The position numbers and the translations under genes are program-made. A DNA stretch of 32,928 bases. It comes from a virus. Lineage: Duplodnaviria; Caudoviricetes. This document shows, piece by piece, positions 1 through 32,790 of the stretch (the stretch's first letter is position 1; each line of letters begins with the position of its first letter). The notes beneath the pieces were generated by a model, which saw nothing but the letters and a program-made list of their open reading frames with translations, made no database searches and was not told the origin of the DNA. The stretch spans positions 1 through 32,928 of IMG/VR virus record IMGVR_UViG_3300017912_004314. The stretch is one strand, 5' to 3'.

Positions 1-70
1 ATATATAGAATATTTAAATTTGATTATATTAAAGTTTTATTAAAGTTTTATTAAATTTTGTTTAGAAATA

Positions 71-98
71 AAGGAAGCTGTACTAGTACAGCTTCCTT
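71..98 (-). terminator. Intrinsic terminator hairpin downstream of gp32
   Basis: Perfect 28-bp palindrome AAGGAAGCTGTACT|AGTACAGCTTCCTT, 7 nt past the gp32 stop. On the minus strand it is followed by T-rich TATTTCT. Confidence 0.8.
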
Positions 99-105
99 AA
101 AAGAA

Positions 106-1008: not shown

Positions 1009-1035
1009 AAGTTTCTCCTTTTCTAGTTTCTAGTT

Positions 1036-1635: not shown

Positions 1636-1867
1636 CTGTTTTCTTTTTATATTTTAGAGCATTAACTTCTAATGCATCACGTTCTATTTTTTCTTTAATA
1701 TTTTTGTTTAATAATCTTTTAACATCTCTAGGATCAATATCATAATCTTTACATACTTCTAATGTAGCATCAATATAATTTAACTTTTTATGTTTTACAG
1801 CTTCTTCAATTAACATAGGAAAAGATTTGTTATTAATACCAAAATCAGAATCAGTTATCTTTTTCAA
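1628..1867 (-). CDS. 33: Late-transcription coactivator gp33 (probable TTG start at 1867)
   Basis: F...IEEAVK...LNYIDA.LEVC...DID....RLL..NIKEKIE.DA..VN.L pattern. CAGGAG SD precedes an in-frame TTG at 1867. Synteny gp33-gp59-gp32. Confidence 0.88.
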   Translation of the reverse strand: MKKITDSDFGINNKSFPMLIEEAVKHKKLNYIDATLEVCKDYDIDPRDVKRLLNKNIKEKIERDALEVNALKYKKKTVV

Positions 1868-2081
1868 AACCAGTCTCCTGTGAATTTTTTGTAATAATAA
1901 TATCACACAACTGAGCAAACCAAGCATCAATTGTTGTTAAGTTTCTATCTTTATAATAATCTTTTACCATTGTAAGTATTTTTATTTTATCTTCAGTTGA
2001 TGCTTTAGAATTATTCCAATATGTAGAAATATCTCTTGCTGTTTCTTCTATTTCAGAAGGTTTAATTAGAGGTAAGTCCAT
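1851..2081 (-). CDS. Hypothetical protein (~76 aa, start MDLPLIKP)
   Basis: ORF fills the gap between the exonuclease and gp33 with short overlaps. AAAGGA lies upstream of the ATG at 2081. Confidence 0.65.
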   Translation of the reverse strand: MDLPLIKPSEIEETARDISTYWNNSKASTEDKIKILTMVKDYYKDRNLTTIDAWFAQLCDIIITKNSQETGFEKDN

Positions 2082-10272: not shown

Positions 10273-10934
10273 GTTATTTCAATGAATTTCCATATACTGA
10301 ATATACTTTTCCTAACAATGAATCTAAACTTGTAAAAAACATTTCTTTTAAACCGGAGATAATTGAAAAAGTCAAACAAGAAAGATCTGCTTTTGAAACT
10401 TACATTTTACAAGATGGTGATACAGTAGAATTAGTTGCACATAAACTATATAATGATATAAACTTACATTGGGCTGTAATGATATCAAATGACATGGTAA
10501 GTCCTTATTTTGATTTTCCTTTATCAACTACACAATTTGATGAATTTATATTTCAAAAATATAAAAATCAAACTGACTCAGATGGTAATTCTGTTACTTT
10601 ATCTAGATCTGATACATTGGCATTTACACAATTTGTTGGAACAGCAACAAATAATTACAATACATTAATAGGTGGTGTAACAGCAAAGCCACATCATTTT
10701 ATAGACTCTAACAAAAATAGATACTCATATGATTATGTAGTTAACAATCCTACAAAAGCGAATGCATTTAACAGATTAGAATCAGACAATATTAATACTT
10801 TTCCTATAGTGTCTCCTGTATCAATATATGATGAAGAACAAGCATTGAACGAAGGAAAAAGAGCTATACTTGTTTTAAAAGCTAGTTTTGTTAATCAAAT
10901 AAAGAATGAATTTCAAAGGTTATTAAATGAGTGA
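10269..10934 (+). CDS. 53: Baseplate wedge protein gp53 (LysM-like)
   Basis: MSYF..FP...Y, Y...DGD..E.VA.KLY.D..LHW.V...N, HH and S.Y..E...NE.KR.I motifs. Confidence 0.92.
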   Translation: MSYFNEFPYTEYTFPNNESKLVKNISFKPEIIEKVKQERSAFETYILQDGDTVELVAHKLYNDINLHWAVMISNDMVSPYFDFPLSTTQFDEFIFQKYKNQTDSDGNSVTLSRSDTLAFTQFVGTATNNYNTLIGGVTAKPHHFIDSNKNRYSYDYVVNNPTKANAFNRLESDNINTFPIVSPVSIYDEEQALNEGKRAILVLKASFVNQIKNEFQRLLNE

Positions 10935-12207
10935 GTATGCTGGATCATACAAATTAAAATCTGTTAATATTTTTTCCAATAAAAACAAATCTGATATTAT
11001 TGGAATGATATCAGAAATCAATATTTTTTCATACATAGAACAACCATCAACAACTGTAATGATTACTATGAATGATTCTACTAATTTTTTAAATGACTAT
11101 CCTATAAAAGGAGGTCAAGAAATTGAAATAGAAGTTGAGTTTGGTTTTGAAAATAGAAAGTGGAAAGTAACTATAGCAGCTATTGAAAATATAAACTCTG
11201 ATCTAAAAACAACAGTATATAATTTAAGATGTGTTTCTAAACTTCTATTTAGATCACATTATACAAATGTATCAAAATCATATAGTGGAAAAGTATCAGA
11301 TATAGCTAAATCAATTTTTAACGAATACAAAAGTGATGATGAAAAAATAAGAATTTGGCAAGATTCATCAAACAGTAGTTCTTATGTAATTCCTGGTTGG
11401 TCACCAGTTCAAACAATAATGTGGTTAGCTCAAAAATCAAGAGCTAAAAATACAGATACTAGATTTAAATTTTTTCAAGATTCATTCTTAACTTTTAATT
11501 TTTTACCTTTAGAAAGTTTAAATGAATTATACAAGGATAATGAAATACAAACCTTTTATCATAATGTGATAAAAACTCAAGGTGTAGAAAGAACAAAAAG
11601 AGAAATGATGGAAATCTTAGAATATAGTTTAAATGATACTAACAATATATTAGAAGGTTTTAATAATGGTTTTCTTTCGGGACAATTGTTTGAATATAAT
11701 ACAACATCTAAGAGATCAAATAATATTACATACAATTATTATAATGATTTTGAAAATTATAAAGAAGAAACAACTAATAAGAGACCTCTTTGGAGAAAGA
11801 ACGATTTATCAAATACATTTATTGATGACTCTATAGGAAGTGGTTTACAAATAGAACAAATTTCAAGATTTAGAGATGATAAACTTGTAGATACAAGTGA
11901 AGCATTAGACAGATCAAGACTAATCAATAGTTTTTTCAATTTAAGTAATAACATGATTACAATTCAAATAAAAGGTAACAATGTTACTGATATTGGACAA
12001 ATTATTAAATTAGAATTTCCAAAAATTAAACCAGCAATAAAAGGTGATATGGTTGATAAACACATATCAGGTAGATATTTAGTTGTAGGCAAAAGACAAC
12101 AGTTTGGACCTAGAGATAATATTATTTCATTAGATGTAATAAGAGATTCAACAATGTTAGATAGTAGTTATAGTGGTAATGAATTAATGGGCGGAGAAGA
12201 AGTATGA
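10927..12207 (+). CDS. Baseplate hub protein (gp27/late-control-D-like)
   Basis: Lies between gp53 and gp5; VSKSYSG..S.I, IP.W.P...I.WL, G.....G..I.L..P and SGRYLV motifs. Confidence 0.75.
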   Translation: MSEYAGSYKLKSVNIFSNKNKSDIIGMISEINIFSYIEQPSTTVMITMNDSTNFLNDYPIKGGQEIEIEVEFGFENRKWKVTIAAIENINSDLKTTVYNLRCVSKLLFRSHYTNVSKSYSGKVSDIAKSIFNEYKSDDEKIRIWQDSSNSSSYVIPGWSPVQTIMWLAQKSRAKNTDTRFKFFQDSFLTFNFLPLESLNELYKDNEIQTFYHNVIKTQGVERTKREMMEILEYSLNDTNNILEGFNNGFLSGQLFEYNTTSKRSNNITYNYYNDFENYKEETTNKRPLWRKNDLSNTFIDDSIGSGLQIEQISRFRDDKLVDTSEALDRSRLINSFFNLSNNMITIQIKGNNVTDIGQIIKLEFPKIKPAIKGDMVDKHISGRYLVVGKRQQFGPRDNIISLDVIRDSTMLDSSYSGNELMGGEEV

Positions 12208-13616
12208 GTTATTTTGGCGACACATTTAAATGGTTTATTGGAGTTGTTGAAGATAGAAATGATCCAAGCGAACTTGGAAGAGTTAAAGTAAGATGTCATG
12301 GTCTTCATACAGATGACAAAACTTTAATACCAACTAAAGATCTTCCTTGGGCTCAGGTAATGATGCCTGTTACTTCTGCAAGTGTTGGAGGTATTGGAGA
12401 ATCACCAACAGGTATAGTTCATGGATCTACTGTTGTTGGTTTTTTCACAGATGGTGTAAGTATGCAACAACCATTTGTAATTGGAACTTTTCATGGAATG
12501 AATAAAGTAAAACCTGATTTTGAAAAAGGTTTTAGTGATCCAAACGAACAACATCCAGTAAGAGTTGGAGAAGTAGGAATTGCAAGTGATAATGACTTAC
12601 CTCATAACTCTCAAAGACTTCAATACAAAAAAACAGATAATTTTACTAAAAGATTAAATGATAGAGTTGAAAATGTAGACACAGCTTCACCTCCTAAAGT
12701 TTCATCTGTAGCACAAGATAAAGATAATTTATATTATGAAAAAGAAACTTGGGACGAACCTTTACCTTACAATGGAGGATCACCTAGATTTCCTTACAAC
12801 AAAGTATTAGAATCAGAAAGAGGTCACATTAAAGAAATAAATGATACTCCGGGATCGGAGAGTTTATTAGATTATCATAAATCAGGAACATTTGAAGAAG
12901 TAATAGCTGATGGAACAAAAACTGTTAGAGTTAAAGGAGATAACTATACAGTAGTATTCAAAGATAATAATATGTTAGTTCAAGGTGATATGAACATGAC
13001 TATTAAAAAAGATTTAAGAGTTAAAGTTGAAGGTAATTATCATTTGGAAGTTGATGGAAACTATACTGAAAATATACATGGTGAAAAACAAGTTAAAATA
13101 TCTAACTCATATAATTTAGAAGTTGATCAAGATTACGTACAAAACATAGGTGAAGACTATGAGACTAGGATAAATGGTAATGAAGCTAGACATGTTGTTG
13201 GAGACAGAAGAAGTATTATTAATAGAACTGATTCAGTTAATATAGACAGTGATTATCAAGTATTTGTTAATAATACAATTAATACATTTAGTGTTAATAG
13301 AAATGTAACAGCAACATTAGATGAATATAAAGTTATGTCTGAAAAAGATATAACTGTTGAAACACCTGCTAGTATGATAACAGAAGTAGATACTAACGTA
13401 ACTACTACTATAGGAGGAAATGTAACTGAAACTGTAACAGGTAATGTTACAGAAAATACAACTGGTACATATGCTAAAACTGTTACCGGAGCAGGTACAA
13501 TTACAATGGAAAACAATGGAAGTGAAGTTAAAGCAAAAACAATTACACTTACAGGTCATACACATACTGACCCTGCAGGAGTAGCTGGAGGTCAAACTTC
13601 AACACCAAACAATTAG
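12204..13616 (+). CDS. 5: Central spike gp5 (OB-fold plus beta-helix, no lysozyme domain, C-terminal HxH)
   Basis: WFIGVVEDRNDP..LGRVKVRC.G.H, LPWA, V.GFF.DG...Q.P..IG, P.NKV.ES..GH..E..DTPG.E, V.G octapeptide repeats and terminal GHTH. Confidence 0.93.
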   Translation: MSYFGDTFKWFIGVVEDRNDPSELGRVKVRCHGLHTDDKTLIPTKDLPWAQVMMPVTSASVGGIGESPTGIVHGSTVVGFFTDGVSMQQPFVIGTFHGMNKVKPDFEKGFSDPNEQHPVRVGEVGIASDNDLPHNSQRLQYKKTDNFTKRLNDRVENVDTASPPKVSSVAQDKDNLYYEKETWDEPLPYNGGSPRFPYNKVLESERGHIKEINDTPGSESLLDYHKSGTFEEVIADGTKTVRVKGDNYTVVFKDNNMLVQGDMNMTIKKDLRVKVEGNYHLEVDGNYTENIHGEKQVKISNSYNLEVDQDYVQNIGEDYETRINGNEARHVVGDRRSIINRTDSVNIDSDYQVFVNNTINTFSVNRNVTATLDEYKVMSEKDITVETPASMITEVDTNVTTTIGGNVTETVTGNVTENTTGTYAKTVTGAGTITMENNGSEVKAKTITLTGHTHTDPAGVAGGQTSTPNN

Positions 13617-16476: not shown

Positions 16477-16920
16477 ATGAATATAAGTGATAACTGTATA
16501 ACTTTAATCAAGCACCACGAAGGTGTCAGAAATATGCCATATCAAGATCCAATTGGATTATGGACTGTTGGAGTAGGACACCTTATGGGAAATGGTAAAG
16601 TAAGACCAAAAGATTGGAATAGAAGAAGATCAAACGAAGAAGTAGATCAATTGCTTCGAAGCGACATAAGAAGATTTGAAAATGGAGTAGAATCTTTAAT
16701 TAATGTTAAACTAAATCAAAATCAATTTGATGCATTAGTATGTTTTGCATTTAATGTTGGTTTAGGAAACTTACAAGCTAGTACATTAAGAAGGAAATTG
16801 AACAGAGGTGACTATGAAGGTGCTGCTAATGAATTTCCAAAATGGAGAAGAGCTGGTGGTAGAGTTTTAAAAGGTTTAGTTAAAAGACGTAATGATGAAA
16901 GAGTTTTATTCTTAAGTTAA
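16477..16920 (+). CDS. GH24 phage lysozyme (endolysin)
   Basis: Catalytic E-x8-D-x5-T in HEGVRNMPYQDPIGLWTVGVGH; QNQFDALV.FAFNVG and GL..RR..ER.LF motifs. Confidence 0.96.
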   Translation: MNISDNCITLIKHHEGVRNMPYQDPIGLWTVGVGHLMGNGKVRPKDWNRRRSNEEVDQLLRSDIRRFENGVESLINVKLNQNQFDALVCFAFNVGLGNLQASTLRRKLNRGDYEGAANEFPKWRRAGGRVLKGLVKRRNDERVLFLS

Positions 16921-17789
16921 GGTCTTGTAAAGAAAGCGAATACTACGTTTCCATTTACATCTTTAACTTCAAAGTCATTACAAACTTTTTGAAACAATGT
17001 CTTCATTGTATCAGAATCTGTTGTAGTATTAAGTAATGCATATTCGTTAAACATGTTTACTATTGCATCTGAATCAATTGATACATTTATAGCAGCAGTG
17101 TTTGTATTTACAGCAGTTTGTAATGATTGTACTTTTCCTTGATCAGAATCTAATCTATCAATAATCTCTGTAATTCTATTGTTTACAATTGATAACAATG
17201 CAGAATCAGAATCATGTTGTGTTTGTAATTTTTGTATAGCTGTAGAATCTGAATCTAATCTAGATTTTAAAGAAGCAACATCAGTTTTTAATGCTTCACC
17301 AGCATCTGCATCTGAATCTACTTTAGATTTTAAAGTTGTAAAAGCTGCTGCTGTAGATAATACAGCATTAAATGAATTAGTTGTTACAAGTGCATCTGAA
17401 TCTGTTGCTTGTTCTTTGTTTACATTAACTAATATTTTTCTATTAGCAACCCAAGCATCTCTTTGACCATTGTATTGAAAAGAAGGTGATGTTCCTCTTT
17501 CAAACAACTCATCACTATCTGCTATTGTAATTCCAGCATTGTTATATTGATCGGAGTCATATGCTCCTTTTGCAATAACAATATTTTTGTCAGCTATTGT
17601 AAGTGTAGAAGAATTTACTACAGACTGAGCTCCGTAAACTTTAAGATCACCATGTATCCTTACATTATCAAAAGATACAAATCCATCAGCTTCAGAGTCT
17701 GCTAATAAACTATTTAAATTTTTATCTACTAATCCAGTGACTTGTGATCTGCCTAACTGGTTAGTAATTCTTCTCGAGTTCTTGGCCAT
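16917..17789 (-). CDS. Fibre-like virion protein with a coiled-coil stalk, rich in DSD motifs
   Basis: GDLKVYG....VNSSTLTIADKNIVIAKGA....NAGITI resembles a common phage fibre beta motif; heptad region follows; it has its own late promoter. Confidence 0.65.
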   Translation of the reverse strand: MAKNSRRITNQLGRSQVTGLVDKNLNSLLADSEADGFVSFDNVRIHGDLKVYGAQSVVNSSTLTIADKNIVIAKGAYDSDQYNNAGITIADSDELFERGTSPSFQYNGQRDAWVANRKILVNVNKEQATDSDALVTTNSFNAVLSTAAAFTTLKSKVDSDADAGEALKTDVASLKSRLDSDSTAIQKLQTQHDSDSALLSIVNNRITEIIDRLDSDQGKVQSLQTAVNTNTAAINVSIDSDAIVNMFNEYALLNTTTDSDTMKTLFQKVCNDFEVKDVNGNVVFAFFTRP

Positions 17790-19828: not shown

Positions 19829-21636
19829 TGGCTAGTTTAAATAGACCTTTAGTAGCTAATTTAGATTTTGATGATATCAAAGACGATATTATAAATCATT
19901 TTAAAGACAACGAAGAGTTTCAAGATTATAATTTTGAAGGCTCAGCTTTAAACACACTAATAGATATATTAGCTTACAACACACATTTGAATGCAATGAC
20001 AGCAAACTTTTCAATAAATGAAATGTTTATAAATTCAGCACAAAAAAGAGAGAACATAATTGCAATTGCAAAAGGAATGAATTATGTCCCTAGTTCAACT
20101 ACAAGTGCTAAAGTTGAAGTTACTGTTAATGTACCTAGATTAGGAAGTGAAAGATCTTTTGTAATTCCAGTTGGAACAACACTAACAGCAACAAGTGGAA
20201 ATACAACATTTACTTTTAATTTAACACAAGATGCTATAGCACAGTTTTTAACAGGAGACACATCTAAACAAGTTAAATTAACTTTTGTACAAGGTAAAAT
20301 GTTGACTGATAGGTTTGTACAAACAGAATCAAATACTAGCTTTCCAACTTTTGAATTATTAAATGGTAATGTTGATACAAAAACTATTGCAGTAAGAGTA
20401 AATGATGCAAAGTATACAAGACTAGATCCTGAAAACGAAAGTATCAATACATTAGATGGAACATCAACAATATTTTTTGTAGAGGAAACTACTAATGAAA
20501 AACATAGAATAAGACTTGGTAATGGTACAATTGGTAAAAAACCAAGTATTGGTGATGAAGTTGTAGTATCATATCTAACAAGTGCTGGTGCAAATGCAAA
20601 TGGTATATCTTCATTTAGTATATCAGTATCTGGAAGGTCTGACATATCAATTGTTTCTAATGGAACTTCGTTTGGAGGAGCATCAATTGAAAGTGAAAGA
20701 TCAATTAAAGATAATGCACCACATTGGTTTCAATCTCAATTTAGAGCTGTTACAACCAATGATTATGAAACAATAATAAAGAAAAATTATCCAGACATAC
20801 AAGCAATAAACGCATACGGTGGTGAAGAAGTTGGAAAACCAGGAAAAGTTTTTTTAACAATTAAACCAAAAGTAGGTAATACACTTTCACAATCTGCTAA
20901 ACTTCATATAAAAAATAATATTATAAAAAAGTTTAATATTGTTAATATTACACCTGAAATATTAGATCCAGAATATATTGAATTGTTATTAAACTCAACA
21001 ATAATATATGACAATGCGAGATTAACATCTGACGAAGCTACTTTAAGATCTAAAGTATTTCAGTTGTTTACATCTTTTAATAATGATAGACTTTCAAGTT
21101 TTAAGAAAAGTTTTTTCGAACAAAATTTAGCAGAAGAAATAAAATTATTAGATAAATCTATTGTATCAATTAACACAAGAACTTCATTAAGATATGATGC
21201 AACTGTTACCAATAATAAACTAAACAAATATCAAATTAGTTTTAACAATCCGTTGTATCATCCATTGTTAGGATTCAATGCTGAAAAAGGTGGAATATTA
21301 TCAACAAATGAGTTTAACAGAATAGGTAAAAGTTTTACATCTGGATTTAATGATGATGGAAAAGGCAACATAAGATTGTTTGATAATTTAGATGGCGTAA
21401 AAGTTTATGCAAATAATAAAGCTGGAACAATTGATTATGGTACAGGATTAATTGATATAAAAGATTTTGATCCCCAAGATGGTAATATTAATTTTACTGT
21501 TGTTCCAGATAGCTTTGATGTACTTTCTCTAAATGAATATATTTTAAGAATAAGTTTAGATTCATCATTAGTTAATATTGTAGAAAAAGATAATATAGAA
21601 TTAATTAACTTACTTAACAAATCAAGAAGTGTATAA
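19828..21636 (+). CDS. 6: Baseplate wedge gp6
   Basis: LDFD.IK, F.DYNFEGS.L..L.D.LAYNTH, SA..R, Q.RAVT..DY and GTIDY.TG motifs. Confidence 0.96.
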   Translation: MASLNRPLVANLDFDDIKDDIINHFKDNEEFQDYNFEGSALNTLIDILAYNTHLNAMTANFSINEMFINSAQKRENIIAIAKGMNYVPSSTTSAKVEVTVNVPRLGSERSFVIPVGTTLTATSGNTTFTFNLTQDAIAQFLTGDTSKQVKLTFVQGKMLTDRFVQTESNTSFPTFELLNGNVDTKTIAVRVNDAKYTRLDPENESINTLDGTSTIFFVEETTNEKHRIRLGNGTIGKKPSIGDEVVVSYLTSAGANANGISSFSISVSGRSDISIVSNGTSFGGASIESERSIKDNAPHWFQSQFRAVTTNDYETIIKKNYPDIQAINAYGGEEVGKPGKVFLTIKPKVGNTLSQSAKLHIKNNIIKKFNIVNITPEILDPEYIELLLNSTIIYDNARLTSDEATLRSKVFQLFTSFNNDRLSSFKKSFFEQNLAEEIKLLDKSIVSINTRTSLRYDATVTNNKLNKYQISFNNPLYHPLLGFNAEKGGILSTNEFNRIGKSFTSGFNDDGKGNIRLFDNLDGVKVYANNKAGTIDYGTGLIDIKDFDPQDGNINFTVVPDSFDVLSLNEYILRISLDSSLVNIVEKDNIELINLLNKSRSV

Positions 21637-24600
21637 TGTCTAAAAGAGTTTATCCTTATATAAGCGAGCAAATTCCAAATTTTATTCGTAGTAACTACGA
21701 ATTGTTTGAGAAATTTCTAAAAGTATATTACGAATATATGGAAAAACAAAACGATTCAGACACTACTACAGATATTACAGCATACAAAAAATTAACTAAT
21801 CCAAACGATCTTATTCAAGGTCAACAAGAATACAGAGATCCAGATAAATCTCTTACTCATTTATTAGAATATTTTAAAAGAGATGTTCTTCCAATATCAG
21901 CTACACCTCAAGGAAGTGATGATAGGTTTCTTATTAATAAAATAAGAGACTTATATCTTTCTAAAGGTACTCCAAATTCATTTAAGTTATTATTTAAACT
22001 TTTGTACAACAAATCTATTGAAGTACAACAACCTAACGAACAAGTTTTAGATACTTCTGAAGGAACTTTCGTTGCTTTTGATGTAGTAACATTTTTATCA
22101 AATGATTCGGATGGAGTTTTAAATAATGTTGATTTTAACAATTCTTTTATTGAACAAGATGATAGTGAAATAGCTTCTGTTATTTTTGGATCAAAAATTA
22201 ATAAGATAGGAGCAAATTCTGTTGTAACTTTAACTACATCTGCTCCTTTCAACAAACAACCAGATTCTGAAATAGTTGTTATTAACAAAAGCGATAGAAG
22301 TAAGTATGTTACAGGTACTGTACTAAGACAAATAAAAAATTTAACTATTACAGATTCTGAAATTGGAATGTACAATGTCGGAGATGAAATACTTGTGAAG
22401 CAAGGAGATAACAAATTTAAAGTGCCTGTAAGATCAACAGAATCTGGTCCAGTAACTTCTTTAATTGTAAAAAACAGAGGTATAAATTATAAAGTAAATG
22501 ATACTATTATTTTTACATCAAAAGGTTTTGGTACAGGAGGATCTGCTACTATAACATCAGTTGATTCAGCTGGTAGAATAACAGGTATTGATAACTCTAA
22601 TGTAAGAACTGGAATATTAAGAAATGGTTATTTATCAAATGATTTTCAAAATGTAAATGTTCCAATATTTTCTGGTGGTAATTATAGTCAATTGCCACAA
22701 GTAAAAATTATTTCAAAAACAGGTCATAGTGCAGAAATTGTTCCTTTTTCAAATAAAATTGGAAGGATCAATGACTTTAATTTTTTTAACAAAGGTTTTT
22801 TTGATTCTGAAAATCATGTGTCTGTTGTTATGCCAATGAATATTAATGTTCATGACCAAACAGATTTGACTAATGGACAAACAGTTAGAATACAAAGGTT
22901 CGAAGCTGATTCAGAAGGTTTTTTATTTGATAGTGATACTTTTAGATTAAGTATAAAATTTAGTAATAGAAAATTTAATGAAACTGATAGTGAGTTAGTT
23001 AGAGTTAGAATACCTTATGCGTTTAACTTTAACACTTTCCAATGGATAGATAGTGAGTTTACTTTTAGTCATACTGATTCAGAATCTTTAGCACACGCAT
23101 TCAAAGATATATTAGATAGAGAAATAAAACCAAACTCTACATATAAATTTAAAGTTATTGACAGTGATGAACAAGGTAATCCAGATTCAGAAACACTGAG
23201 AGTTTTTTTATTTTATTTTAATTTGAAGGGATTGGATGATTTTCATTTTGACTTATTAAGTAGATATGAAGATAGTGACAAATATAGATCAATTGCATTT
23301 AAAAAAATAAAAGTGACACCATTTTTAGGTTTGAGTGAAAACGTTGGAAGATTTCAAAATACTAATTTTATTGGAACTGTTGTATCAGTAAACAGTGATA
23401 AAAATATTGTTAAAATTTTAGAAACAGAAAAAATTGATTCTGATGATAGATTTCCAACAGATTCTGATTTAGACATTATTGAAAATAACAGGTATAGAAT
23501 ATTAAGATTAGTTCCTGTTGATAAAGAAACTAACAATGCAATGGTTGTTGAATCTTTTCCTTTTAAAAATTTAATAGCAAATCATCAAAGAGGCAAAGCT
23601 AGTGTTTTATTTGAAGGTTCAGGTCAAACATCAAAACAATTTTTAGACGAAAAAGGTTTTCTTAATTCATTAAGTGGAGGTGTTCTAAGAGATAATTTAT
23701 TTTATGATTTGTTTAGTTATGTTATAAAGTCAGATTTATCAATTAATTCATGGAGAGAGTATGTAAAGAATATATTACACCCAGCTGGAATGAATCTTTT
23801 GAGTAACTTAAATATTGATTCTACAGTTAATAGTGAAACTAATAAATCAAGTATTGTAGATAACTTAGGTGAAACATTTAACATTACCTTTGATAGATCT
23901 TTAGATCATTCAGTAAATGCAGCTGAAAATTCTGGGTCTTTAAATGCAGCGACTTCGTTATATGCTTCAAATGCTTTTAATTTGTATAACACAACTTTTG
24001 AAAATGGAGTTTCTGTTACAGCTGATAATACAAGTTTAATTTTAGGTCAAGCTGAAGATGCTGAATTTGGTAATGCGTTTTGGGATTATGAACCAGTTGG
24101 ATATATCGATCCTCAATCTACACAAACAAAAGATAGTGATGGATCTCAAATTATTCATGAAACAAATTTTATACATCAAACATATGATAAAAAAGATAAA
24201 GATTCAGATTATCTTCAAGATTTTTACAAATATAAAAACTTATCAAGATATCCAGATCAACAAACTATTACATTAGGTAAAACTGAATTCAAAGAAGGAG
24301 AAAATATATTTTTATTATTTGATTCAGAAAAAGTAAACAGAATTAACTTTTTAAGATTTGATTTTTCTAAAGATAGTGATAACAGTTATGCTGGCGACAG
24401 TGATGAAAAATTAATTTTTAAAGGTATAGAATATTTAAAATTAAAAGATACAGACTCTGATTTTGTAAAACAAGAAATAACAAAAAGAAACTACGAATAC
24501 TTGATAGAGTTTAACAAAGATTTAAAAAATGCAAGTAAAGAAGACAATAGTTTTTCTTATGCAGTAAATGGAACAACCTTTTTAAACATGGAAGCATTCA

Positions 24601-24905
24601 ATCAAAAGTGGAATACGATTCATAGAAAAAGAGTTAATAATGAAGGATGGGAAATACAAGGATATAGTTCTTCATTAGTAAATGCTACAGGTGCAGATTA
24701 CAGATTCATAAACGAACATATGAATTTTGTTCCAAAATATTCAAAAGAAAAAGCATCAATAAACAAAGAATTTTGGAATAGTCAAAATACAATTGTTTGG
24801 CAAAATGCTTATCTAAACCCAATAAATAGTAAAGAAACAAATTTACTTTATATTGATTCGGATAGTAGAGATCCAAACTCATATAATAGTTCGAGAAAAG
24901 ACTGA
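21636..24905 (+). CDS. Baseplate wedge protein, gp7-like
   Basis: Between gp6 and gp8; QIP.FIR..Y..F..FL..YYE, I.DLY.SKGT..SF.LLF..LY and DN..Y..FSY.IKS......W...V....HPAG motifs. Confidence 0.8.
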   Translation: MSKRVYPYISEQIPNFIRSNYELFEKFLKVYYEYMEKQNDSDTTTDITAYKKLTNPNDLIQGQQEYRDPDKSLTHLLEYFKRDVLPISATPQGSDDRFLINKIRDLYLSKGTPNSFKLLFKLLYNKSIEVQQPNEQVLDTSEGTFVAFDVVTFLSNDSDGVLNNVDFNNSFIEQDDSEIASVIFGSKINKIGANSVVTLTTSAPFNKQPDSEIVVINKSDRSKYVTGTVLRQIKNLTITDSEIGMYNVGDEILVKQGDNKFKVPVRSTESGPVTSLIVKNRGINYKVNDTIIFTSKGFGTGGSATITSVDSAGRITGIDNSNVRTGILRNGYLSNDFQNVNVPIFSGGNYSQLPQVKIISKTGHSAEIVPFSNKIGRINDFNFFNKGFFDSENHVSVVMPMNINVHDQTDLTNGQTVRIQRFEADSEGFLFDSDTFRLSIKFSNRKFNETDSELVRVRIPYAFNFNTFQWIDSEFTFSHTDSESLAHAFKDILDREIKPNSTYKFKVIDSDEQGNPDSETLRVFLFYFNLKGLDDFHFDLLSRYEDSDKYRSIAFKKIKVTPFLGLSENVGRFQNTNFIGTVVSVNSDKNIVKILETEKIDSDDRFPTDSDLDIIENNRYRILRLVPVDKETNNAMVVESFPFKNLIANHQRGKASVLFEGSGQTSKQFLDEKGFLNSLSGGVLRDNLFYDLFSYVIKSDLSINSWREYVKNILHPAGMNLLSNLNIDSTVNSETNKSSIVDNLGETFNITFDRSLDHSVNAAENSGSLNAATSLYASNAFNLYNTTFENGVSVTADNTSLILGQAEDAEFGNAFWDYEPVGYIDPQSTQTKDSDGSQIIHETNFIHQTYDKKDKDSDYLQDFYKYKNLSRYPDQQTITLGKTEFKEGENIFLLFDSEKVNRINFLRFDFSKDSDNSYAGDSDEKLIFKGIEYLKLKDTDSDFVKQEITKRNYEYLIEFNKDLKNASKEDNSFSYAVNGTTFLNMEAFNQKWNTIHRKRVNNEGWEIQGYSSSLVNATGADYRFINEHMNFVPKYSKEKASINKEFWNSQNTIVWQNAYLNPINSKETNLLYIDSDSRDPNSYNSSRKD

Positions 24906-26371
24906 TGACAGCAAAGATAACAAATAACTTTAATTCTTTTGTAGCTAAAGCTGTAAGAGATAATTTAAAAGACATTGATAATGAAGATGTTTATTATGCT
25001 TTTTTAAGTTTTAACAATGATTCTGATTTACAAAGATATACTGATTCAGATGGTATTGACGAAGATGCTGAATTTGTAGGTGGATCAAATTCAACATTCA
25101 ACGCAGATGACAAAGCATATTATTTGCAACATTCTATTACAGCTCACAAATTACAAAAAGGAAATATTACTAGAGTAATACCTAGAGTAAACTGGACTAA
25201 TGGTACTAGATATTATGTTAACAATTATGTTATGGTATCAAGTGTAATAAGAGGTATTGCAAATTTAAACGTATATAAAGTATTGCATTATCCAAATGCA
25301 GTAAGTGCTGTTGCACCATCAGGAGATCAATCTACACCAATAACAACTTCTGACAAATATGTTTGGCAATATATGTATACTATCAATGCTTCTGATAGTT
25401 TAAGATTTGTTACTGATAACTTTATACCTGTACCTGAGAGAATCAAAGACAATGAAATATCTTCTTTAAATACAGGAACATCAAAGTATAAACAATTTCA
25501 AGTACAAAGAGACTCAGTTGTAGGTACAATTTATAATGTAACAATAAACGATAGTGATTGGGAAGTTTGGGCAAAAGACAACTATGGATCATTTTCAGAT
25601 ATTCCATCGTCTATAACATTAAGTGCAGAAAACTCTACATCAAATACACCTTCTAAAGTTTTTGCAGGTACAATAACTAAAAACGATAGTGAGTTTACAT
25701 TTAACTTAGTTACAAATGGTGCTGGATATAGTGAAGGTACAAAAATTAAAATTGGTTCTCTTTCACCAAATGGATTATCATCAGATGTGTCTCCAGGCAT
25801 GGGTCATGGAACTAATGCTCCTTTAGAACTGGGTGCAAAACATGTTATGATAAACATAAGAAATGTTCCAGACGAAGAAGTAGTTAAGTTTGCGAGAAAC
25901 AATTTTAGAATGGTTACGCTGATAAGAAATCCTATAGACAATGCTACATTAAAAACAGCTAAGAATGATTTTTATATTACGTGTAAATCATTTATAGGAA
26001 GTGATTCTGATGGTGGTAATACTACTTTCAACATTGGAGATATTGTTTCTACAGCAGATATTTCAGGTAATAATTATGATGATACAACAGCAAAAGTAGG
26101 AAGAATTGTAGCTGTAGATGTAAATAAAAAAGAATACTTTTATGTAAATTTAGGTAAAGTAAAAGATAATAAATCTTTTGCAGTAGATGATTTAGTTAAA
26201 GTTGTTACAACAGATGGAACAGTATCTGGTAATCCTTTATCTATTTCAAGCATTAACAATAGACAAATATTATACAATTCAGGTGATATTTTGATTAATG
26301 ATATTAAAGCAAATAATATTAGAAGAGCAAAAGATCAAATAGAATCGTTTAATTTTATCTTAACTTTTTAG
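24905..26371 (+). CDS. 8: Baseplate wedge gp8
   Basis: VIPR.NW..G, VYK, D.YVW.YMYTI, F.....IPV, GHG.N...ELGA, NP and SG.I..........R...Q.E...F.L.F motifs. Confidence 0.9.
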   Translation: MTAKITNNFNSFVAKAVRDNLKDIDNEDVYYAFLSFNNDSDLQRYTDSDGIDEDAEFVGGSNSTFNADDKAYYLQHSITAHKLQKGNITRVIPRVNWTNGTRYYVNNYVMVSSVIRGIANLNVYKVLHYPNAVSAVAPSGDQSTPITTSDKYVWQYMYTINASDSLRFVTDNFIPVPERIKDNEISSLNTGTSKYKQFQVQRDSVVGTIYNVTINDSDWEVWAKDNYGSFSDIPSSITLSAENSTSNTPSKVFAGTITKNDSEFTFNLVTNGAGYSEGTKIKIGSLSPNGLSSDVSPGMGHGTNAPLELGAKHVMINIRNVPDEEVVKFARNNFRMVTLIRNPIDNATLKTAKNDFYITCKSFIGSDSDGGNTTFNIGDIVSTADISGNNYDDTTAKVGRIVAVDVNKKEYFYVNLGKVKDNKSFAVDDLVKVVTTDGTVSGNPLSISSINNRQILYNSGDILINDIKANNIRRAKDQIESFNFILTF

Positions 26372-26383: not shown

Positions 26384-29300
26384 ATGGCAAATATTGATTT
26401 AAATATATCACCTTATTTTGATGATTTTGATGAAACTAAAGACTTTTTAAGAGTTTTATTCAGACCTGGTTTTCCTGTTCAAGCAAGAGAACTTACTACA
26501 GCTCAATCAATTTTACAAGAACAAATAAAAAGGTCTGGTGACTTTTTATTAAAAGATGGTGCAAGAGTTACAGGTGCTAAAATTGACTTTGATAAAAAAG
26601 CAAATAAATTAGAACTTACTGGTTCATCAAATGCATCCTTTCCAGCTTCTAGTGCAAGAGCAAGTTCTATACTTTCTAATATTGAAAACTTAGAAAACTT
26701 AGTTATTTCAAATACAGAAGGTACAGTAAAGGCTATTGTAATGTCAAGTCCAACAGGTACTATAAAATCAAACAATGTTGGAAATCTATACATAAAATAT
26801 ATTACAGCAGAACAATTTGATACCGGTGGTGGTTACATTTATGCTACTATAGCTGATAATCCAACTTTGTCTTCAGAATTATATAATACTTTTTCTTCAA
26901 CTAGTCCTTGTTCATTAGCACACATAGAAGAAGGTGTTTATTATGTTCAAGGTTTTTTTACAAGAGTAGCTCAACAAACTGTTGTAGTTGATAATACAAC
27001 AACATCACCAAGTGTTAAATTAGGTTTTACAGTTTCAGAAACATTAGTTACTCCTAATAATGATACAAGTTTGTTTGATAATGCAAGAGGATCTTCTAAT
27101 GAAGGAGCTCCAGGAGCACATAGACTACAACAATCATTATCATTTGGAATAAGATCACTTACTGCTGATACAGATCCAAACTTTTTTGAGGTGATGACGA
27201 TACAAGAAGGTATTGCAATACAACAAACTTCAAAAACAGATAATATTGGTGGTGGTTTAGCAAAAGCATTTAGTAGTAGATTGTATGAAACTTTAGGAAG
27301 TTATCAAATTACTCCTACAATATTAAACTTTAATTATACAGATAGTGATTCAACTTTTGCATATACACTTGATAGAATTATAGCTTATGTAAATGGAGAA
27401 AGATTTTCAACTGCTGGTAAATCAAATTTAGTAGCACCAAAATCTTTGAACACTGAAAGAATAAACAGTCAGTCTGTAACGCTAACAGGTGTGCCTTATA
27501 TTAACGTTGATATAGAAGTTAACAGCGCACTTCCAGGTTTTGTAAGTGCAACTTCAAACAATCCTCATTTACATACAAACAGATTGTTATTACAAGATTC
27601 AGATAATAAAACTTATGGTTATGCTAGAGCATATGGTATAGGTAATATTGGTCCTAACGACACAAGATTATATCTTTATGATGTACAATTTTTTCAAAAG
27701 TTGACTTTACAAGGTGCGCCTGCTACATTAGGTATTGGATATAATATTAAAACTGTTAATGATACAAGAGCTTATTATACAGAATTAGAAAACACTGCAG
27801 CTGCTTCAGACTCAGATTGGTTACATGATTCTGAAATATTTGTTATTGATTATAATAGAAATTTTAGAAAAGGTCAAGTAATTACATCTAACGTAGATAC
27901 AACTTTTAAGAAAACAATTGATAATGTAACAACTTTTGACTGGTCAAATATTACATATATAAGAGGAAAGTCAGGAACTTTTTATGCAAAAATAAAAAGT
28001 AATAGTAAAATACAAAACGACAATAGTCAATTAATAGGACAAGTACCAGGTATTGTTAGAACAGCTAGAGACAATGGTAAAGTATTTGATAATGATTTTG
28101 AATTGTTGATGCCTAATCCTCCAACAATATCTGCAACAGGTGGAACTATTGCTATTACTCCACAACCATCAGATACTTTCTTTTCAACAGCAACTGCTAA
28201 TGGTGATTATCAAAGAACTAGAATTGATGATGGAAATGAAATTACTAAAAAATTAAAGTATGCATATTTAAAAATAAGAAACGGAGCAGGAAGAACAACT
28301 TCAATAAATTATGGATGGACAACTAATGATAGAGAGATGACTTTAATATATTCAGATGTTCACAAAATTCAAGGTTTATCTCAAGGTACTGTTAATAATG
28401 AATTCTCACATTTTGATCAAATAGATATTAATATTGCTGGTGGTGGTATTATTCCTCAAGGTTCTGTAATAATTGGAAATACATCAAGAACTGTAGCAGT
28501 TGTTGCACTTTCAAATACAGATGTAAATCAGGTAGAATTATCTGATACAACTGGTTATCATACATCTAGATCTGGTACTGGATCTCCAACAGTTTTAGAA
28601 ATAATTAAAAGAGATGATACAAAAAACTTTATTGCAAATGAACAATTATTAATTTTGACACCAAATGATAAAGATCCTTTTAACAATGTAGTAACATTTT
28701 TTGGAAATAGATCAACTATTATTACAAATACAACAGAAGGTTTTGGTAATAGAGTTGAGTTACAATATTTTGTTGATGATGGACAAAGAGATCATATATA
28801 TGAAACTGGTAAGTTAATAAGAAAACAATTAATAGATCCTCCTACATCTGGAGATCTCACGGTTTTCTTTTCTTATTATGATGATGAAGATACTACAAAT
28901 AAATTTTATTATAGTGCAGATTCATATTCTACAGGTGGTTACAGCAAATCAAATCCAGTTTATAAAAAAGGTTCAACACCTATAAGAGGACAACAAGTTG
29001 TTAATGGTATCAATAGAAAAAATTTAATTGACTTTAGAAAAAAATTACAAGCTCACACAACAACAAGTCAAAATCCATTTGTTTTCAATCATAAAGTTTT
29101 TAATAACAGAACAAGTATACTTCCTGGAGTTGGTAATAGCTTTAATAGTAGATCTAAATTTACTTTTACGTATGATGAATATTTAAGTAGATACGATATA
29201 TTATATATTAACTCTGGTGCAAATAAACAAATAAGTAGACTTGGTGGTTTACCTTCTAGAAATCCTGAAGTTCCTAAATTTGATTCGTCTCTAGGACTAA

Positions 29301-30943
29301 AACTTGCAACAATTAAAGTACCAGGAGCTTTTAAAACTTTTGATAGACTAAAAGTTACTATTGAAAAAAATAAAAATTTTACTATGAGAGACATCGCTTC
29401 AATTGAAAGTAGATTAAAAAATCTAGAAAATGTTGTCTCTTTATCATTTCTTGAAACTCAAGCACTTGCTGAAGATGTAAATGATAGAACTAAATTAGGT
29501 TTTATTGTAGATGACTTTACAACTAAAACTGATGATGTAGTTCAAAATTTGTTACTTTCAACAGCTTTTGCATCAAACAAAGACAAAACTTTAAGACCAA
29601 GATCAGTAGCTACAACTGTTGATATGGAAATTTCTGATAGCACTAATGATGGATTAAGAAACAAAGGTATTGATCCTTTTTACTTTAATAATGGATTTAT
29701 TACTAAAACTTATACTCAATTTCCAAATGTTGAAAATGGAGACAATGAATATGTTTCTCAGCTACAAGCATCAGGAAGTATAAGAATTAATCCTCACTCT
29801 ACTTCTGTTTTTACAGGATATATTACATTAGATCCTCCTAGAGATACAACTAGAGTCAAAGCAAATAGAAATATAAAAAGATTTATCATTGATAGAGAAG
29901 GATTAGAAAATGACTCTGATGTTACGTTACAAGAGTTTGAAACTAATGTTAAACCAGTTCCAATGTCTGACACATGGGCAGGTGAATGGGAAAATTTAGG
30001 TGATGTAAGTACAGCAAGTTCTGAACAAGGCAATGTTGTTGTTACAGTAAAAACTCAAGCACAAATTAAAAATACATTCCAAAAACAACTTGTTACTAGA
30101 GATAAGGCTTCTACATTTGCAAGAGAAGATACATTCATAGATGTAAATGCTTTTGTACCATCAAGAGAAGTTATTTTTAATGTTGAAGGATTAAAACCAA
30201 ATACTACACACAATGCATTTTTTGATCAAAGAGATGTAACATCAAACTGTATTCAAGCAGATGATACAAGTGGTGATCTTACATTTATTAATAGTACAGT
30301 AGGTGTATTAAGAACTGATGAACTTGGTTTAATAAGAGGTAAATTTACAATACCACCAGCAATATTTAAAACAGGAACTCATATTTTTACGTTAAAAGAT
30401 AGTACTGGAATATCAATTGCAAAAGCAAAATATATTGCAGGAGCAACTTATGATGTTGGTACATTATCAAAATTTAGAACTGAAGGTATTGAAGACGTTG
30501 TAGTTGATACTGAAGCTAGAGTTAAAACATTTGATACTGTCATTACTTATAAAGGAAATGTTGTAAAAACTGATAATAGTGAACAAGTTTGGGGTGAAGA
30601 TACTCCAGGTGTATCACAAATTTCAGATTACATGGATGACATACACTCATCTAATATGATATCTGATCCTTTTGAACCTGCTTCAAATGGAACAATTGAC
30701 TACAGTGATTTTTCAGTTGCTAACAGTTACACAGGACATGATGGAATTGATGGACATGTTTCAGCTGTAGCAAATGATGTAGGTAGTAGTTACGCTGACG
30801 ATACAAGTTATTCTCCACCATCAACAAATAGTATTTATAGTAATGATGCAAATGATAGTGGAAATAGTGATGGTGATGGACATGATGGTACTGATGGCGG
30901 TTTTGGAGGACCTGATAATGATACTGATCACGGAGGAACTTAA
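26384..30943 (+). CDS. Large VrlC-like (DUF4815-type) virion structural protein, N-terminal part
   Basis: LN.SPYFDDF..K.F.RVLFRPG.PVQARELT..QSILQ.QI, L.DNA.G.SN..APGAHR, TMRDI..IE.R..NLE...SLS.LE, GF.VDDF and GLKPNT....FFD motifs. Confidence 0.85.
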   Translation: MANIDLNISPYFDDFDETKDFLRVLFRPGFPVQARELTTAQSILQEQIKRSGDFLLKDGARVTGAKIDFDKKANKLELTGSSNASFPASSARASSILSNIENLENLVISNTEGTVKAIVMSSPTGTIKSNNVGNLYIKYITAEQFDTGGGYIYATIADNPTLSSELYNTFSSTSPCSLAHIEEGVYYVQGFFTRVAQQTVVVDNTTTSPSVKLGFTVSETLVTPNNDTSLFDNARGSSNEGAPGAHRLQQSLSFGIRSLTADTDPNFFEVMTIQEGIAIQQTSKTDNIGGGLAKAFSSRLYETLGSYQITPTILNFNYTDSDSTFAYTLDRIIAYVNGERFSTAGKSNLVAPKSLNTERINSQSVTLTGVPYINVDIEVNSALPGFVSATSNNPHLHTNRLLLQDSDNKTYGYARAYGIGNIGPNDTRLYLYDVQFFQKLTLQGAPATLGIGYNIKTVNDTRAYYTELENTAAASDSDWLHDSEIFVIDYNRNFRKGQVITSNVDTTFKKTIDNVTTFDWSNITYIRGKSGTFYAKIKSNSKIQNDNSQLIGQVPGIVRTARDNGKVFDNDFELLMPNPPTISATGGTIAITPQPSDTFFSTATANGDYQRTRIDDGNEITKKLKYAYLKIRNGAGRTTSINYGWTTNDREMTLIYSDVHKIQGLSQGTVNNEFSHFDQIDINIAGGGIIPQGSVIIGNTSRTVAVVALSNTDVNQVELSDTTGYHTSRSGTGSPTVLEIIKRDDTKNFIANEQLLILTPNDKDPFNNVVTFFGNRSTIITNTTEGFGNRVELQYFVDDGQRDHIYETGKLIRKQLIDPPTSGDLTVFFSYYDDEDTTNKFYYSADSYSTGGYSKSNPVYKKGSTPIRGQQVVNGINRKNLIDFRKKLQAHTTTSQNPFVFNHKVFNNRTSILPGVGNSFNSRSKFTFTYDEYLSRYDILYINSGANKQISRLGGLPSRNPEVPKFDSSLGLKLATIKVPGAFKTFDRLKVTIEKNKNFTMRDIASIESRLKNLENVVSLSFLETQALAEDVNDRTKLGFIVDDFTTKTDDVVQNLLLSTAFASNKDKTLRPRSVATTVDMEISDSTNDGLRNKGIDPFYFNNGFITKTYTQFPNVENGDNEYVSQLQASGSIRINPHSTSVFTGYITLDPPRDTTRVKANRNIKRFIIDREGLENDSDVTLQEFETNVKPVPMSDTWAGEWENLGDVSTASSEQGNVVVTVKTQAQIKNTFQKQLVTRDKASTFAREDTFIDVNAFVPSREVIFNVEGLKPNTTHNAFFDQRDVTSNCIQADDTSGDLTFINSTVGVLRTDELGLIRGKFTIPPAIFKTGTHIFTLKDSTGISIAKAKYIAGATYDVGTLSKFRTEGIEDVVVDTEARVKTFDTVITYKGNVVKTDNSEQVWGEDTPGVSQISDYMDDIHSSNMISDPFEPASNGTIDYSDFSVANSYTGHDGIDGHVSAVANDVGSSYADDTSYSPPSTNSIYSNDANDSGNSDGDGHDGTDGGFGGPDNDTDHGGT

Positions 30944-32790
30944 TGATAGGTAGTATTGCACAAACTTTTACATTACCAGGAGTTTTTGCTCAAAGTTTAG
31001 GCTTTGATTCTAATGGTGTTCCTTTCAAACAAAATACAAGTAACAACGATAACTCAATAGCAGTAAGAGATGCATGTTTTGTTACAGCTGTAGATTTGTT
31101 TTTTGATTATGTTGATCTAAATGCAAATCAAAATTATGTTAGAGTTGAAATAAGAAATACAAGAGCTGATGGAACTCCAGGAGATGTAGTAGTTGGTTAC
31201 TCATCAAAATTTTTAACTGACAGTGATGGATCAGCTGTAGGTAGAGCTGTTGCTTCAACAAGATCAAATTTTAGATTTAACTCTCCTGTATATCTTTTAG
31301 CTAATAAAATTTATGCATTAGTTGTAAAAACAAGATCTCCTCTTACAAGTTTATATGTTTCTGAGTTAGGACAATCAGACATTACTGCTGGTAAAGGAGG
31401 ACTTATTAATAGACCACCTGTTATTGGACAAGCTGGTGGAACTTTATATACATCTGATAATAGCTTTACATATACTGCAAACCCAACTAAAGATATGAAA
31501 TTTAGATTATACAAAGCTAAATTTGACACTTCAACAAATGAATTTAGTTTAAAAAGTAAAACATCAAAATTAGCAATCAATATTGGTAAACACAGTGATG
31601 GATTACCAATAAGAGTATTCAAACATTCTCCATATGTTTTAATAAAACATGCTAATCATGGTATGTATGGAGCTAATCAAAAAGTAGTTATATCAGGAGC
31701 AATAGGTCCAAATGGAACTGATAATATTGGAGGTGTTCCTGTAAGTGAAATTAATAATCAAAAAGATGCTGCTTTAGATGGCTTCGTTAATTCACATGAA
31801 GTGTTGTTTCCATATCAAGATGGATATTTTATTAAAGTAACAAAAAATGCTACAGCAAATGCTGATGGAGGTGGTTATAATGTATTAGCTACTTCTAATT
31901 TACAATATAATAATTTATACTCAAACATTAATGCAATTACAAATGAATTTACAAGAGTTGATGCTAAAATTAAACAAACATCTGGAACTACATTAGATAA
32001 TAAAATTATTAACAGATTAAAAGTTTTAGATACTACTTACAAAGATTATAGAGCATCTGGTGTAAAGGATGATAATTTTACACACATTGAAGTAGATAAA
32101 AATAATTATTATGATAAACCAAAGATTGTTCAGTCTTCAGTTAACTCAACTTTAAATTCATTGGATATGAATATAATAATGAATACAGCTAATGAAAATT
32201 TTTCTCCAGTAATTCCAGTTGAATCATCTTCGTTTGGTATTGTTAATAAAATTAAATTACTTAGAAACAAAACTGGTATAAGTCCAGATGATTCTGATGT
32301 TGAAAACTTTTACAGTGATTTCAATATTTTAAGAGCTAATGATAGTGATTTGTTAAACGAAAATGATTCTGAAAATGATGATAAACAACAAAAAGTATCT
32401 TCATACTTATCATCACTTTATTCTGCGTCTAATGATCACAGTGATTATATTACAAAAACTACAAGTTTAGAAACTCCTGCAGATACTTTGATTGTTAAAT
32501 TTTCAGCTGATATGAATCCTTCTAACATTATTGAAATTGCTTTTAAAGCAAAAAGATTAGGAGATTCAAAAAACATTGATGATCAACCATTTGAAAATTT
32601 TAAACTTAACCAATTTATTAACGAAACAAATTATGGGGAATTTAATTCAGGTGAAGACTTTAGAGAATACTCTGCAGAACATAGTGTTGGTGAAGATTTT
32701 TCAGACTTTATTGTAAGAATTAGAATGAAAACAAAGAACGAAGCATTTGTTCCAAGAATAAAAAATTTAAGGATAATAGCAGTTGCATAA
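30943..32790 (+). CDS. VrlC-like virion structural protein, C-terminal part as a separate ORF
   Basis: Starts IAQTF..FVTAVDLFF, then F.F..PVYL....YA.V, D.KF.LY.A.F, H.NHGM, SPVI, YITK...L and a terminal P.IK.LR.IA.A. Confidence 0.8.
   Translation: MIGSIAQTFTLPGVFAQSLGFDSNGVPFKQNTSNNDNSIAVRDACFVTAVDLFFDYVDLNANQNYVRVEIRNTRADGTPGDVVVGYSSKFLTDSDGSAVGRAVASTRSNFRFNSPVYLLANKIYALVVKTRSPLTSLYVSELGQSDITAGKGGLINRPPVIGQAGGTLYTSDNSFTYTANPTKDMKFRLYKAKFDTSTNEFSLKSKTSKLAINIGKHSDGLPIRVFKHSPYVLIKHANHGMYGANQKVVISGAIGPNGTDNIGGVPVSEINNQKDAALDGFVNSHEVLFPYQDGYFIKVTKNATANADGGGYNVLATSNLQYNNLYSNINAITNEFTRVDAKIKQTSGTTLDNKIINRLKVLDTTYKDYRASGVKDDNFTHIEVDKNNYYDKPKIVQSSVNSTLNSLDMNIIMNTANENFSPVIPVESSSFGIVNKIKLLRNKTGISPDDSDVENFYSDFNILRANDSDLLNENDSENDDKQQKVSSYLSSLYSASNDHSDYITKTTSLETPADTLIVKFSADMNPSNIIEIAFKAKRLGDSKNIDDQPFENFKLNQFINETNYGEFNSGEDFREYSAEHSVGEDFSDFIVRIRMKTKNEAFVPRIKNLRIIAVA

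Follow-up and report, generated by a model that had tools for sequence, protein, structure and literature searches.

A selected D-S-[D/E] motif on the outer tail proteins of T4-like phages, likely a sequon read by a phage-encoded Maf/GT42-like enzyme

Maf flagellin transferases transfer sugars in the cytoplasm to protein serines from cytidine monophosphate (CMP)-activated donors that include 3-deoxy-D-manno-octulosonate (Kdo), and in Escherichia coli they can place Kdo and N-acetylneuraminic acid (Neu5Ac) on Ser/Thr, as given in the accessible part of their description (bioRxiv 10.1101/2020.06.03.131540). For the transferase SdgB the tripeptide DSD is a sufficient minimal substrate with Ser as the acceptor, according to the available portion of that work (PMC8561734). 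The system considered here would combine features of both. It was found in a 32,928-nucleotide stretch (the window) of the viral record IMGVR_UViG_3300017912_004314, a fragment of a T4-like phage that spans gp32 to VrlC and is all that the record holds of the genome, and it concerns a D-S-[D/E] tripeptide that is highly enriched in the outer tail proteins. This tripeptide is likely (probability about 0.55) a sequon read by a phage Maf/GT42-like enzyme, which would add a CMP-activated acidic sugar to the serine; that the serine receives a covalent modification of some kind is considered probable.

General O-glycosylation in Bacteroidota uses the sequon D-(S/T)-(A/I/L/V/M/T), in which, as here, Asp directly precedes the acceptor. 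Virion glycosylation by phage-encoded glycosyltransferases is said to have been described for mycobacteriophages by Freeman et al. in 2023, and reportedly involves few sites, on capsid or tail-tube subunits. The decoration of the virion by the phage's own glycosyltransferases (PMC11256854, in the accessible part) would be common to both systems. In the present case, however, the sites are many and lie on the neck, sheath, baseplate and fibres, with capsid and tube spared, and the candidate enzyme is Maf-like.

The expected number of DS[DE] tripeptides was taken as the mean of 2000 composition shuffles for each of the 26 window proteins, and the gene names used are backed by PHROG/Pfam matches. 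The window proteins that carry the motif are the following.

21636..24905, plus strand: gp7-like outer baseplate wedge protein, 1089 amino acids, 23 sites (shuffles, PHROG/Pfam, structure model, homologues).
16917..17789, minus strand: fibre-like, likely coiled-coil protein, 290 amino acids, 10 sites (shuffles).
24905..26371, plus strand: gp8 baseplate wedge protein, 5 sites (shuffles, PHROG/Pfam).
26384..30943, plus strand: VrlC-like protein, N-terminal part, 5 sites (shuffles, PHROG/Pfam).
30943..32790, plus strand: VrlC-like protein, C-terminal part, 4 sites (shuffles, PHROG).
10269..10934, plus strand: gp53, 1 site (shuffles).
12204..13616, plus strand: gp5, 1 site (shuffles).
1628..1930, minus strand: gp33 late-transcription co-activator, not a virion protein, one N-terminal D-S-[D/E], clade-specific.

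The gp7-like protein, whose structure model finds as its top PDB match a 1004-residue chain of the T4 baseplate, has 23 DS[DE] (13 DSD, 10 DSE) among its 26 DS dipeptides, against a shuffle mean of 1.23 and a maximum of 6. An earlier, sequence-only reading of this DNA had counted about 23 by eye, nearly all of the DS dipeptides, with 1-2 expected, which is thus borne out. In the fibre-like protein 10 of the 12 DS dipeptides belong to the motif (shuffle mean 0.39), and its family of six sequences has 49 sites where 2.3 are expected. The excess is also evident in gp8 (5 vs 0.42 expected, p 0.0005) and in the N-terminal (5 vs 1.28, p 0.011) and C-terminal (4 vs 0.50, p 0.002) parts of VrlC. The single sites of gp53 and gp5 are not significant alone; their families have 11 vs 1.2 and 10 vs 3.5 expected, respectively. 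Pooled, the six outer proteins of the window have 48 sites vs 4.0 expected, about 12-fold. The motif count is zero in 18 of the 26 proteins, including gp6, gp25, gp27, gp48, the tape measure, a 796-amino-acid protein, ClpX and gp32. The same reading had given about these counts for the fibre (10), gp8 (5), VrlC (5 and 4), gp53 and gp5 (1 each), and, gp27 apart, had named these absences; all were reproduced, and its list of proteins was incomplete only in that the single DSD of the non-virion gp33 had been overlooked. VrlC is split over two open reading frames (ORFs), each matching phrog_358, and in several relatives it is one long ORF; the first of the two has an Asp/Gly/His-rich low-complexity tail at its end.

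The strictness of the motif is best seen in G001, a tagged (motif-rich) relative of 152 kb that is 85% complete. At least two sites are present in 19 of its 187 ORFs, namely gp7, gp8, VrlC, the neck proteins gp13/14/15, the sheath gp18, fibres and a few unnamed proteins. In these 19 proteins DSD occurs 145 times vs 6.6 expected and DSE 40 times vs 3.2, whereas the controls DTD (3/5.6), ESD (1/3.2), DAD (6/4.6), DND (3/4.8) and DGD (1/5.4) are not enriched. In gp7 of the window the excess is likewise far above the shuffles and the permuted tripeptides are rare (DT[DE] 1, ES[DE] 0, DDS 1). The suggestion of a Bacteroidetes-type sequon does not hold, since Thr and small hydrophobic residues at +1 are unenriched (DTD as above, DTE 3/2.9, DSA 4/5.0, DSL 1/5.0) and the residue at +1 is acidic instead. 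Pro at +2 after the motif is found in 0 of 50 sites in the window and in 0 of 555 distinct contexts from four genomes; over all tagged proteins it occurs in 5 of 1600, where the reference values are 6 of 60 for outgroups and 3.1-4.5% for control triplets. In six close homologues the motif Ser is 96% conserved vs 55% for other Ser. In 18 gp7 proteins, 345 sites fall on 60 positions, of which only one is common to all. The sites are scattered with unrelated flanks, and there is no tandem SD-repeat region. D-S-[D/E]-(not Pro) is a real, selected motif that behaves like a sequon.

The tag is confined to a part of the T4-like phages. Among the best 120 of 295 gp7 homologues, the 22 closest (29-96% identity) have 11-32 sites each and the other 98 have 0-2. 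Of 152 loci analysed, 57 (many redundant) are tagged with a 7- to 22-fold excess, two are too short, and 93 show no excess, pooling to 147 sites vs 214 expected. When loci were ranked by terminase similarity, the top 38, with at least 65% identity, correspond to the tagged clade and show the excess wherever outer tail genes are included, while the remaining 42 do not. All 25 distinct clade terminases fall on one branch (bootstrap 100), which splits into three sub-lineages, A (containing the window), B and C. The gp8 orthologues have 4-10 sites inside the clade and 0-1 outside, and a single clade fibre has 65. In the G001 set no site is present in gp25, gp27, portal, tube, terminase or gp6 (whose family has 0 vs 10.0 expected), and 0-1 are found in the major capsid protein. 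The tag is enriched on the neck, sheath, outer baseplate and fibres of one terminase-defined clade, and capsid, portal and tube are spared. In gp33 (loci L344-L381) most clade members keep the N-terminal DS[DE] amid changing flanks, and the outgroup proteins are without it; gp33 is a possible regulatory substrate.

Two sequencing runs, X1 and X2, contain the greater part of the gp7 gene; both are seawater metagenomes from a single study, and the habitat is taken from them; other runs share at most 0.30 of words. No isolate of the strict clade was found among 50,697 phage records, and among GTDB genomes only distant gp7 relatives were found, all untagged. The large terminase of the clade (L182:170-2014, L160:9475-11316) is extended at its N terminus by about 60 residues that find no match in the next relatives. 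Lineage C has extra arrays of large tagged fibre-like genes (L215:2174-12386; L169:11747-19579), and in G011 four of these are two genes from the Maf-like gene.

The candidate writer was brought out by clustering the proteins of tagged contigs. It is a two-domain protein of 374-415 amino acids, present in sub-lineages A, B and C and conserved between them at 47-58% identity; for gp7 the corresponding figure is about 30%. The gene is found in all five contigs that were chosen by gp7/gp8 and extend far enough past gp32, and all 14 viral loci found with the protein are surrounded by genes of the tagged clade. In an independent gp32 scan it lies within 10 kb in 9 of 44 clade loci; in the others the contig ends too early, or the sub-lineage has the gene 12-25 kb away. 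A protein search gave 141 matches, the best 120 all with E <1e-119, and a library of 1.84 billion proteins holds two full-length representatives, followed by single-domain relatives of about 190 amino acids at E 1e-35 or weaker. The gene is absent from both complete untagged genomes, G022 and G023, the only ones that count among the 28 records of this test, as 26 are fragments (six of them head or tail pieces of the tagged clade). Its setting is one of T4-like replication genes with no flagellar locus, and its relation to the window is as follows.

1..105, no strand: left edge of the window past gp32; in lineage A the Maf-like gene begins 3.2-3.5 kb past the gp32 end and hence outside the window.

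In the closest relatives it is located at L177:3719-4897, L201:10001-11170 and L179:16435-17604. Run X1 contains a contig identical to window positions 287-1500 (depth 8.2) and a second contig (depth 7.2) with a Maf-like gene, of about 83% DNA identity to L200; the window may derive from this run.

The model of the Maf-like protein (predicted local distance difference test, pLDDT, 88.6) has as its best match the Maf structure 5MU5 (Foldseek E 2.7e-5), with residues 17-221 superposed on residues 270-514 at Z 11.7 and a root-mean-square deviation of 3.6 over 170 aligned residues. Next come Cst-I (Z 9.1) and then HPPK and SteA (both Z 8.2). A five-sequence profile of the family found no real PDB relative, and with a wider profile that includes distant relatives the nine best of ten PDB hits are GT42 sialyltransferases, matched at the GNG, CN, SG and GxD motifs, which form the CMP site. 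Invariant in 103 members are G26 N27 G28, N49, D65, G108, G128 and D130, and the Ser of SG is Ala. D65 and D130 stand at the motif ends expected for E324/D415 of 5MU5, placed by motif and not by residue-level structural alignment. The central domain of the candidate is thus predicted to have a Maf/Cst-like modified GT-A fold. The N-terminal 230 residues have a mean net charge of +9.6, and the family itself contains 0 DS[DE] vs 12 expected, a comparison in which the sequences are not independent. The C-terminal part is a conserved domain of about 120 amino acids with no convincing look-alike in the Atlas (best 0.79), followed by a poly-Pro tail in 109 of 120 members (e.g. L177:3719-4897). Among the distant single-domain relatives PF01973 matches 5 of 27, one of them above the cut-off.

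Compared with the Maf transferases (5MU5; PF01973), the candidate shares the predicted fold and has near-invariant acidic residues at what would be the matching motif ends, but it is about 390 rather than 632 amino acids long, has its own C-terminal domain and poly-Pro tail, and its proposed substrates are phage tail proteins with a short sequon and not flagellin. GT42 enzymes such as Cst-I and Cst-II share the GNG, CN, (S/A)G and GxD motifs, aligned by profile, at about 15% identity, although their acceptors are lipooligosaccharide sugars and not protein serines. SdgB/SdgA O-GlcNAcylation shares the DSD minimal motif and the Ser acceptor, but it relies on a GT-B enzyme, UDP-GlcNAc and tandem SD repeats, as far as the available text goes (PMC8561734), while the sites found here are dispersed and include DSE, and the candidate has a different predicted fold. 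The proposed system would resemble Maf in its mode of action and SdgB in its minimal motif but belong to neither group, because there is no PF01973 match, no flagellar context and no tandem repeats.

A related tag occurs in a second lineage. The complete genome G044, whose terminase is 44% identical to that of the clade, has DSD 33 vs 4.9 expected and DSA 21 vs 6.4 in similar kinds of proteins. It also has KdsA and a single-domain Maf-like gene of 205 amino acids, which matches the clade family by profile with a probability of 66%. Of five contigs picked by the G044-type gene, four hold gp8, and all four are tagged with D-S-[D/A]; Pro stands at +2 in one case out of 140. Phage C48C1, a complete GenBank genome (OQ984149.1), has a Maf-like gene of 41% identity (L435:7720-8382) and a weaker, partial D-S-[D/E/A] tag in its fibres (DSD 18 vs 5.7 in 6 of 14 proteins), with none in gp8 or VrlC; it could be an experimental handle if in culture. 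In the terminase tree the second lineage, the strict clade and the untagged phages come out apart from one another, and in the tree of the Maf-like proteins the subfamilies stay apart with the deep nodes unresolved.

In the proposed mechanism, modification would take place in the cytoplasm, ahead of virion assembly or while it proceeds. The Maf-like enzyme, probably by way of its basic N-terminal domain, would bind the acidic motif where tail proteins leave it accessible and would transfer the CMP-activated acidic sugar to Ser, giving the tail a dense sugar coat. A complex prediction of residues 1-345 with gp7 905-945 scored 0.00, which is no evidence either way. New sites would arise at any part of the outer surface that can accommodate them, and buried interfaces would stay free of them. 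The donor may come from the host's supply of CMP-Kdo, or of a nonulosonate akin to it, to which phage KdsA would add where present. Kdo is a tentative and rather uncertain lead, suggested by the occurrence of KdsA in several genomes (G001, at 310 bits with a cut-off of 242, G012, G016, G044 and G062), patchy in both lineages, and by the ability of Maf enzymes to transfer Kdo to Ser/Thr. The purpose of the coat can be guessed at: protease shielding, decoy binding or particle sticking, or tuning of host attachment.

An origin of the excess in composition, DNA repeats or domain duplication is refuted. The 23 sites of gp7 exceed the maximum of the shuffles, and they are written by 12 different 9-mers with both Ser codon families (AGT 9, TCA 6, TCT 6, TCG 2; GATTCAGAA at 22908 and GATAGTGAT at 22929, exactly as previously stated), so that the excess is a protein-level constraint and not a DNA repeat, as the sequence-only reading maintained. 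Some relatives' fibres do have DSD-containing tandem repeats, but unrelated folds are tagged and the excess persists once repeated contexts are removed. An unmodified motif acting as a distributed Ca2+/Mg2+/Fe-binding or helix-capping element that stabilizes the tail exterior in seawater, close to the cation-binding coat suggested before, is improbable. Cation-binding loops tolerate DAD, DND, DGD, DTD and ESD, none of which is enriched; the second lineage has D-S-A about as often as D-S-D, and the outgroups are equally marine yet lack the motif. The hydroxyl flanked by two carboxylates would suit such a role, as would the position of several sites ahead of helices, in fibres as well as in the model of gp7, although in that model the sites are spread over loops, strands and helices alike; the missing Pro at +2 could mean that a backbone NH is required. 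Even less probable is that the motif is a place where a reader without enzymatic activity docks, for instance a small decoration protein or the clade ClpX as an assembly chaperone. ClpX (window 2699-3829, minus strand) is core to all three sub-lineages (56-57% identity) and absent from G022-G024, and the conserved site of gp33, two genes away, would fit regulatory docking. However, ClpX degrons are mostly terminal, unlike the up to 65 internal copies of the motif in one fibre, and no ClpX homologue is among the best hits for the complete G044, which has the related tag.

The motif might also be a modification site served by another writer or chemistry: a different phage glycosyltransferase (from the 'KWGxKY' cluster after the fibre genes or from the five-gene cluster of G001 and G016), an SdgB-type host enzyme, transfer of phosphate or pyrophosphate, or hydroxylation of Asp. 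In that case host lipopolysaccharide (LPS) or DNA would be the target of the Maf-like protein. This is held to be unlikely. In its favour, the clade is rich in transferase-like genes and Asp/Asn hydroxylases, the 'KWGxKY' family occurs in eight genomes, and HPPK and thiamine pyrophosphokinase have the fold of the Maf-like protein. In G001 the Maf-like gene adjoins a UDP-glucose dehydrogenase and a thymidylate-synthase-like gene, but lineages A and C lack these DNA-modification neighbours. Most of the transferase-like genes are just 22-32% identical between sub-lineages, and the three tested all have homologues in the untagged phage Mosig. An Asp-only reaction is at odds with the strict Ser. 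A kinase, proposed earlier as one possible writer, loses ground: no core kinase was found in the clade, and RIO-like kinases are confined to lineage A. Searches for GT25 and GT2 gave no match in five and five tagged records, though G016 does have a GT25. No SdgB-type GT-B enzyme was named by Pfam in 113 of about 187 ORFs of G001 and 80 further proteins, a set in which several transferase-like ORFs are unnamed. Such phage genes have been read in the literature as modifiers of host LPS, as stated in the accessible parts of two papers (PMC7029224; PMC12801897).

Several observations weigh against the proposal of a Maf/GT42-like writer. Within each lineage its co-occurrence with the tag reflects common descent and would be expected of any core gene; further glycosyltransferase-like genes recur across the clade. 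A third Maf-like subfamily (phrog_30607) is present in the pelagiphages Mosig and HTVC008M, which show no D-S tag over several proteins. The search for a modifying enzyme co-occurring with the motif, which the sequence-only reading had advised, yielded a gene that is core to the clade and has this further subfamily in phages that lack the tag. The terminase tree has no outgroup, so both tagged groups could be sisters, and no X1 contig bridges the window and the contig with the Maf-like gene. At the level of the protein, pyrophosphokinases such as HPPK have the same fold, PF01973 (tried on L155:17084-18328, P0218 and P0241) and the NCBIfam models are unmatched by the family, and the Ser needed by CbMaf (S334) and GkMaf appears, from spacing and the Cst SG motif, to align with the invariant Ala107. 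KdsA is absent from the complete C48C1. The tagging of gp33 runs counter to a mark restricted to the virion exterior; the earlier idea of an outer-virion tag for a Ser-modifying enzyme otherwise gains from the strict Ser, the lack of Pro at +2, the turnover of sites and the candidate writer. Loops of the gp7 model hold 9 of 14 motif Ser and 21 of 40 other Ser, no clear difference in a model that is middling (pLDDT 62.8, with most of 718-949 below 50) and has no accessibility values. Frequency in non-virion proteins, another check advised by that reading, also fails to favour the proposal: on a non-redundant set, the motif reaches 0.55 of its expected number in untagged proteins and 0.63 in outgroups, which is no clear avoidance. 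An apparent avoidance in the non-virion proteins of G001 (8 vs 18-22 expected) was rejected, as it is gone on that set.

Further features of these phages were recorded. In lineage B, CsgF/CsgG curli genes with FecR and CHASE2-cyclase genes lie at L156:13415-19723, and a similar curli cluster is reported for pelagimyophages in the available part of PMC7029224. The DNA-modification modules of this lineage vary: G001 has a thymidylate-synthase-like gene and an alpha-glucosyltransferase (L156:1663-2367, L156:8340-9665), and G012 has a methylase, a 5-hydroxymethyldeoxyuridine (5-hmdU)-kinase helical domain and an inositol-phosphate synthase (L217:912-5936). Other T4-like baseplate loci have A-N-[T/V/A/S] at 4-8 times expectation over several proteins (L047, L050, L055-L058, L065, L110, L113, L119, L121-L123, L133, L138), and locus L149 has D-S-T 17 times vs 3.4 expected; both are possibly further lineage tags.

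A broader formulation, in which marine T4-like phages practise sequon-directed O-glycosylation with a Maf-derived enzyme placing Kdo or a related sugar on D-S-x, enzyme and sequon differ together by lineage, and the mark on gp33 couples the coat to late transcription, is speculative and advanced with little confidence. The literature covered, which does not extend to most subscription papers, yielded no account of the tag, of C48C1 or of a Maf in phages. For protein engineering, a Maf-type enzyme whose minimal sequon is defined would be a useful tool; the accessible part of the Maf paper (bioRxiv 10.1101/2020.06.03.131540) names none and does not contain the words 'sequon' and 'motif'. On the broader formulation, three residues would also form a genetically encodable tag for Ser-O-Kdo or sialylation. 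If the proposal of a Maf/GT42-like writer is true, some of the phage glycosyltransferase and KdsA genes that are now read as modifiers of host LPS would serve the virion instead, and a widespread group of marine myoviruses would wear a self-made sugar coat addressed by three residues.

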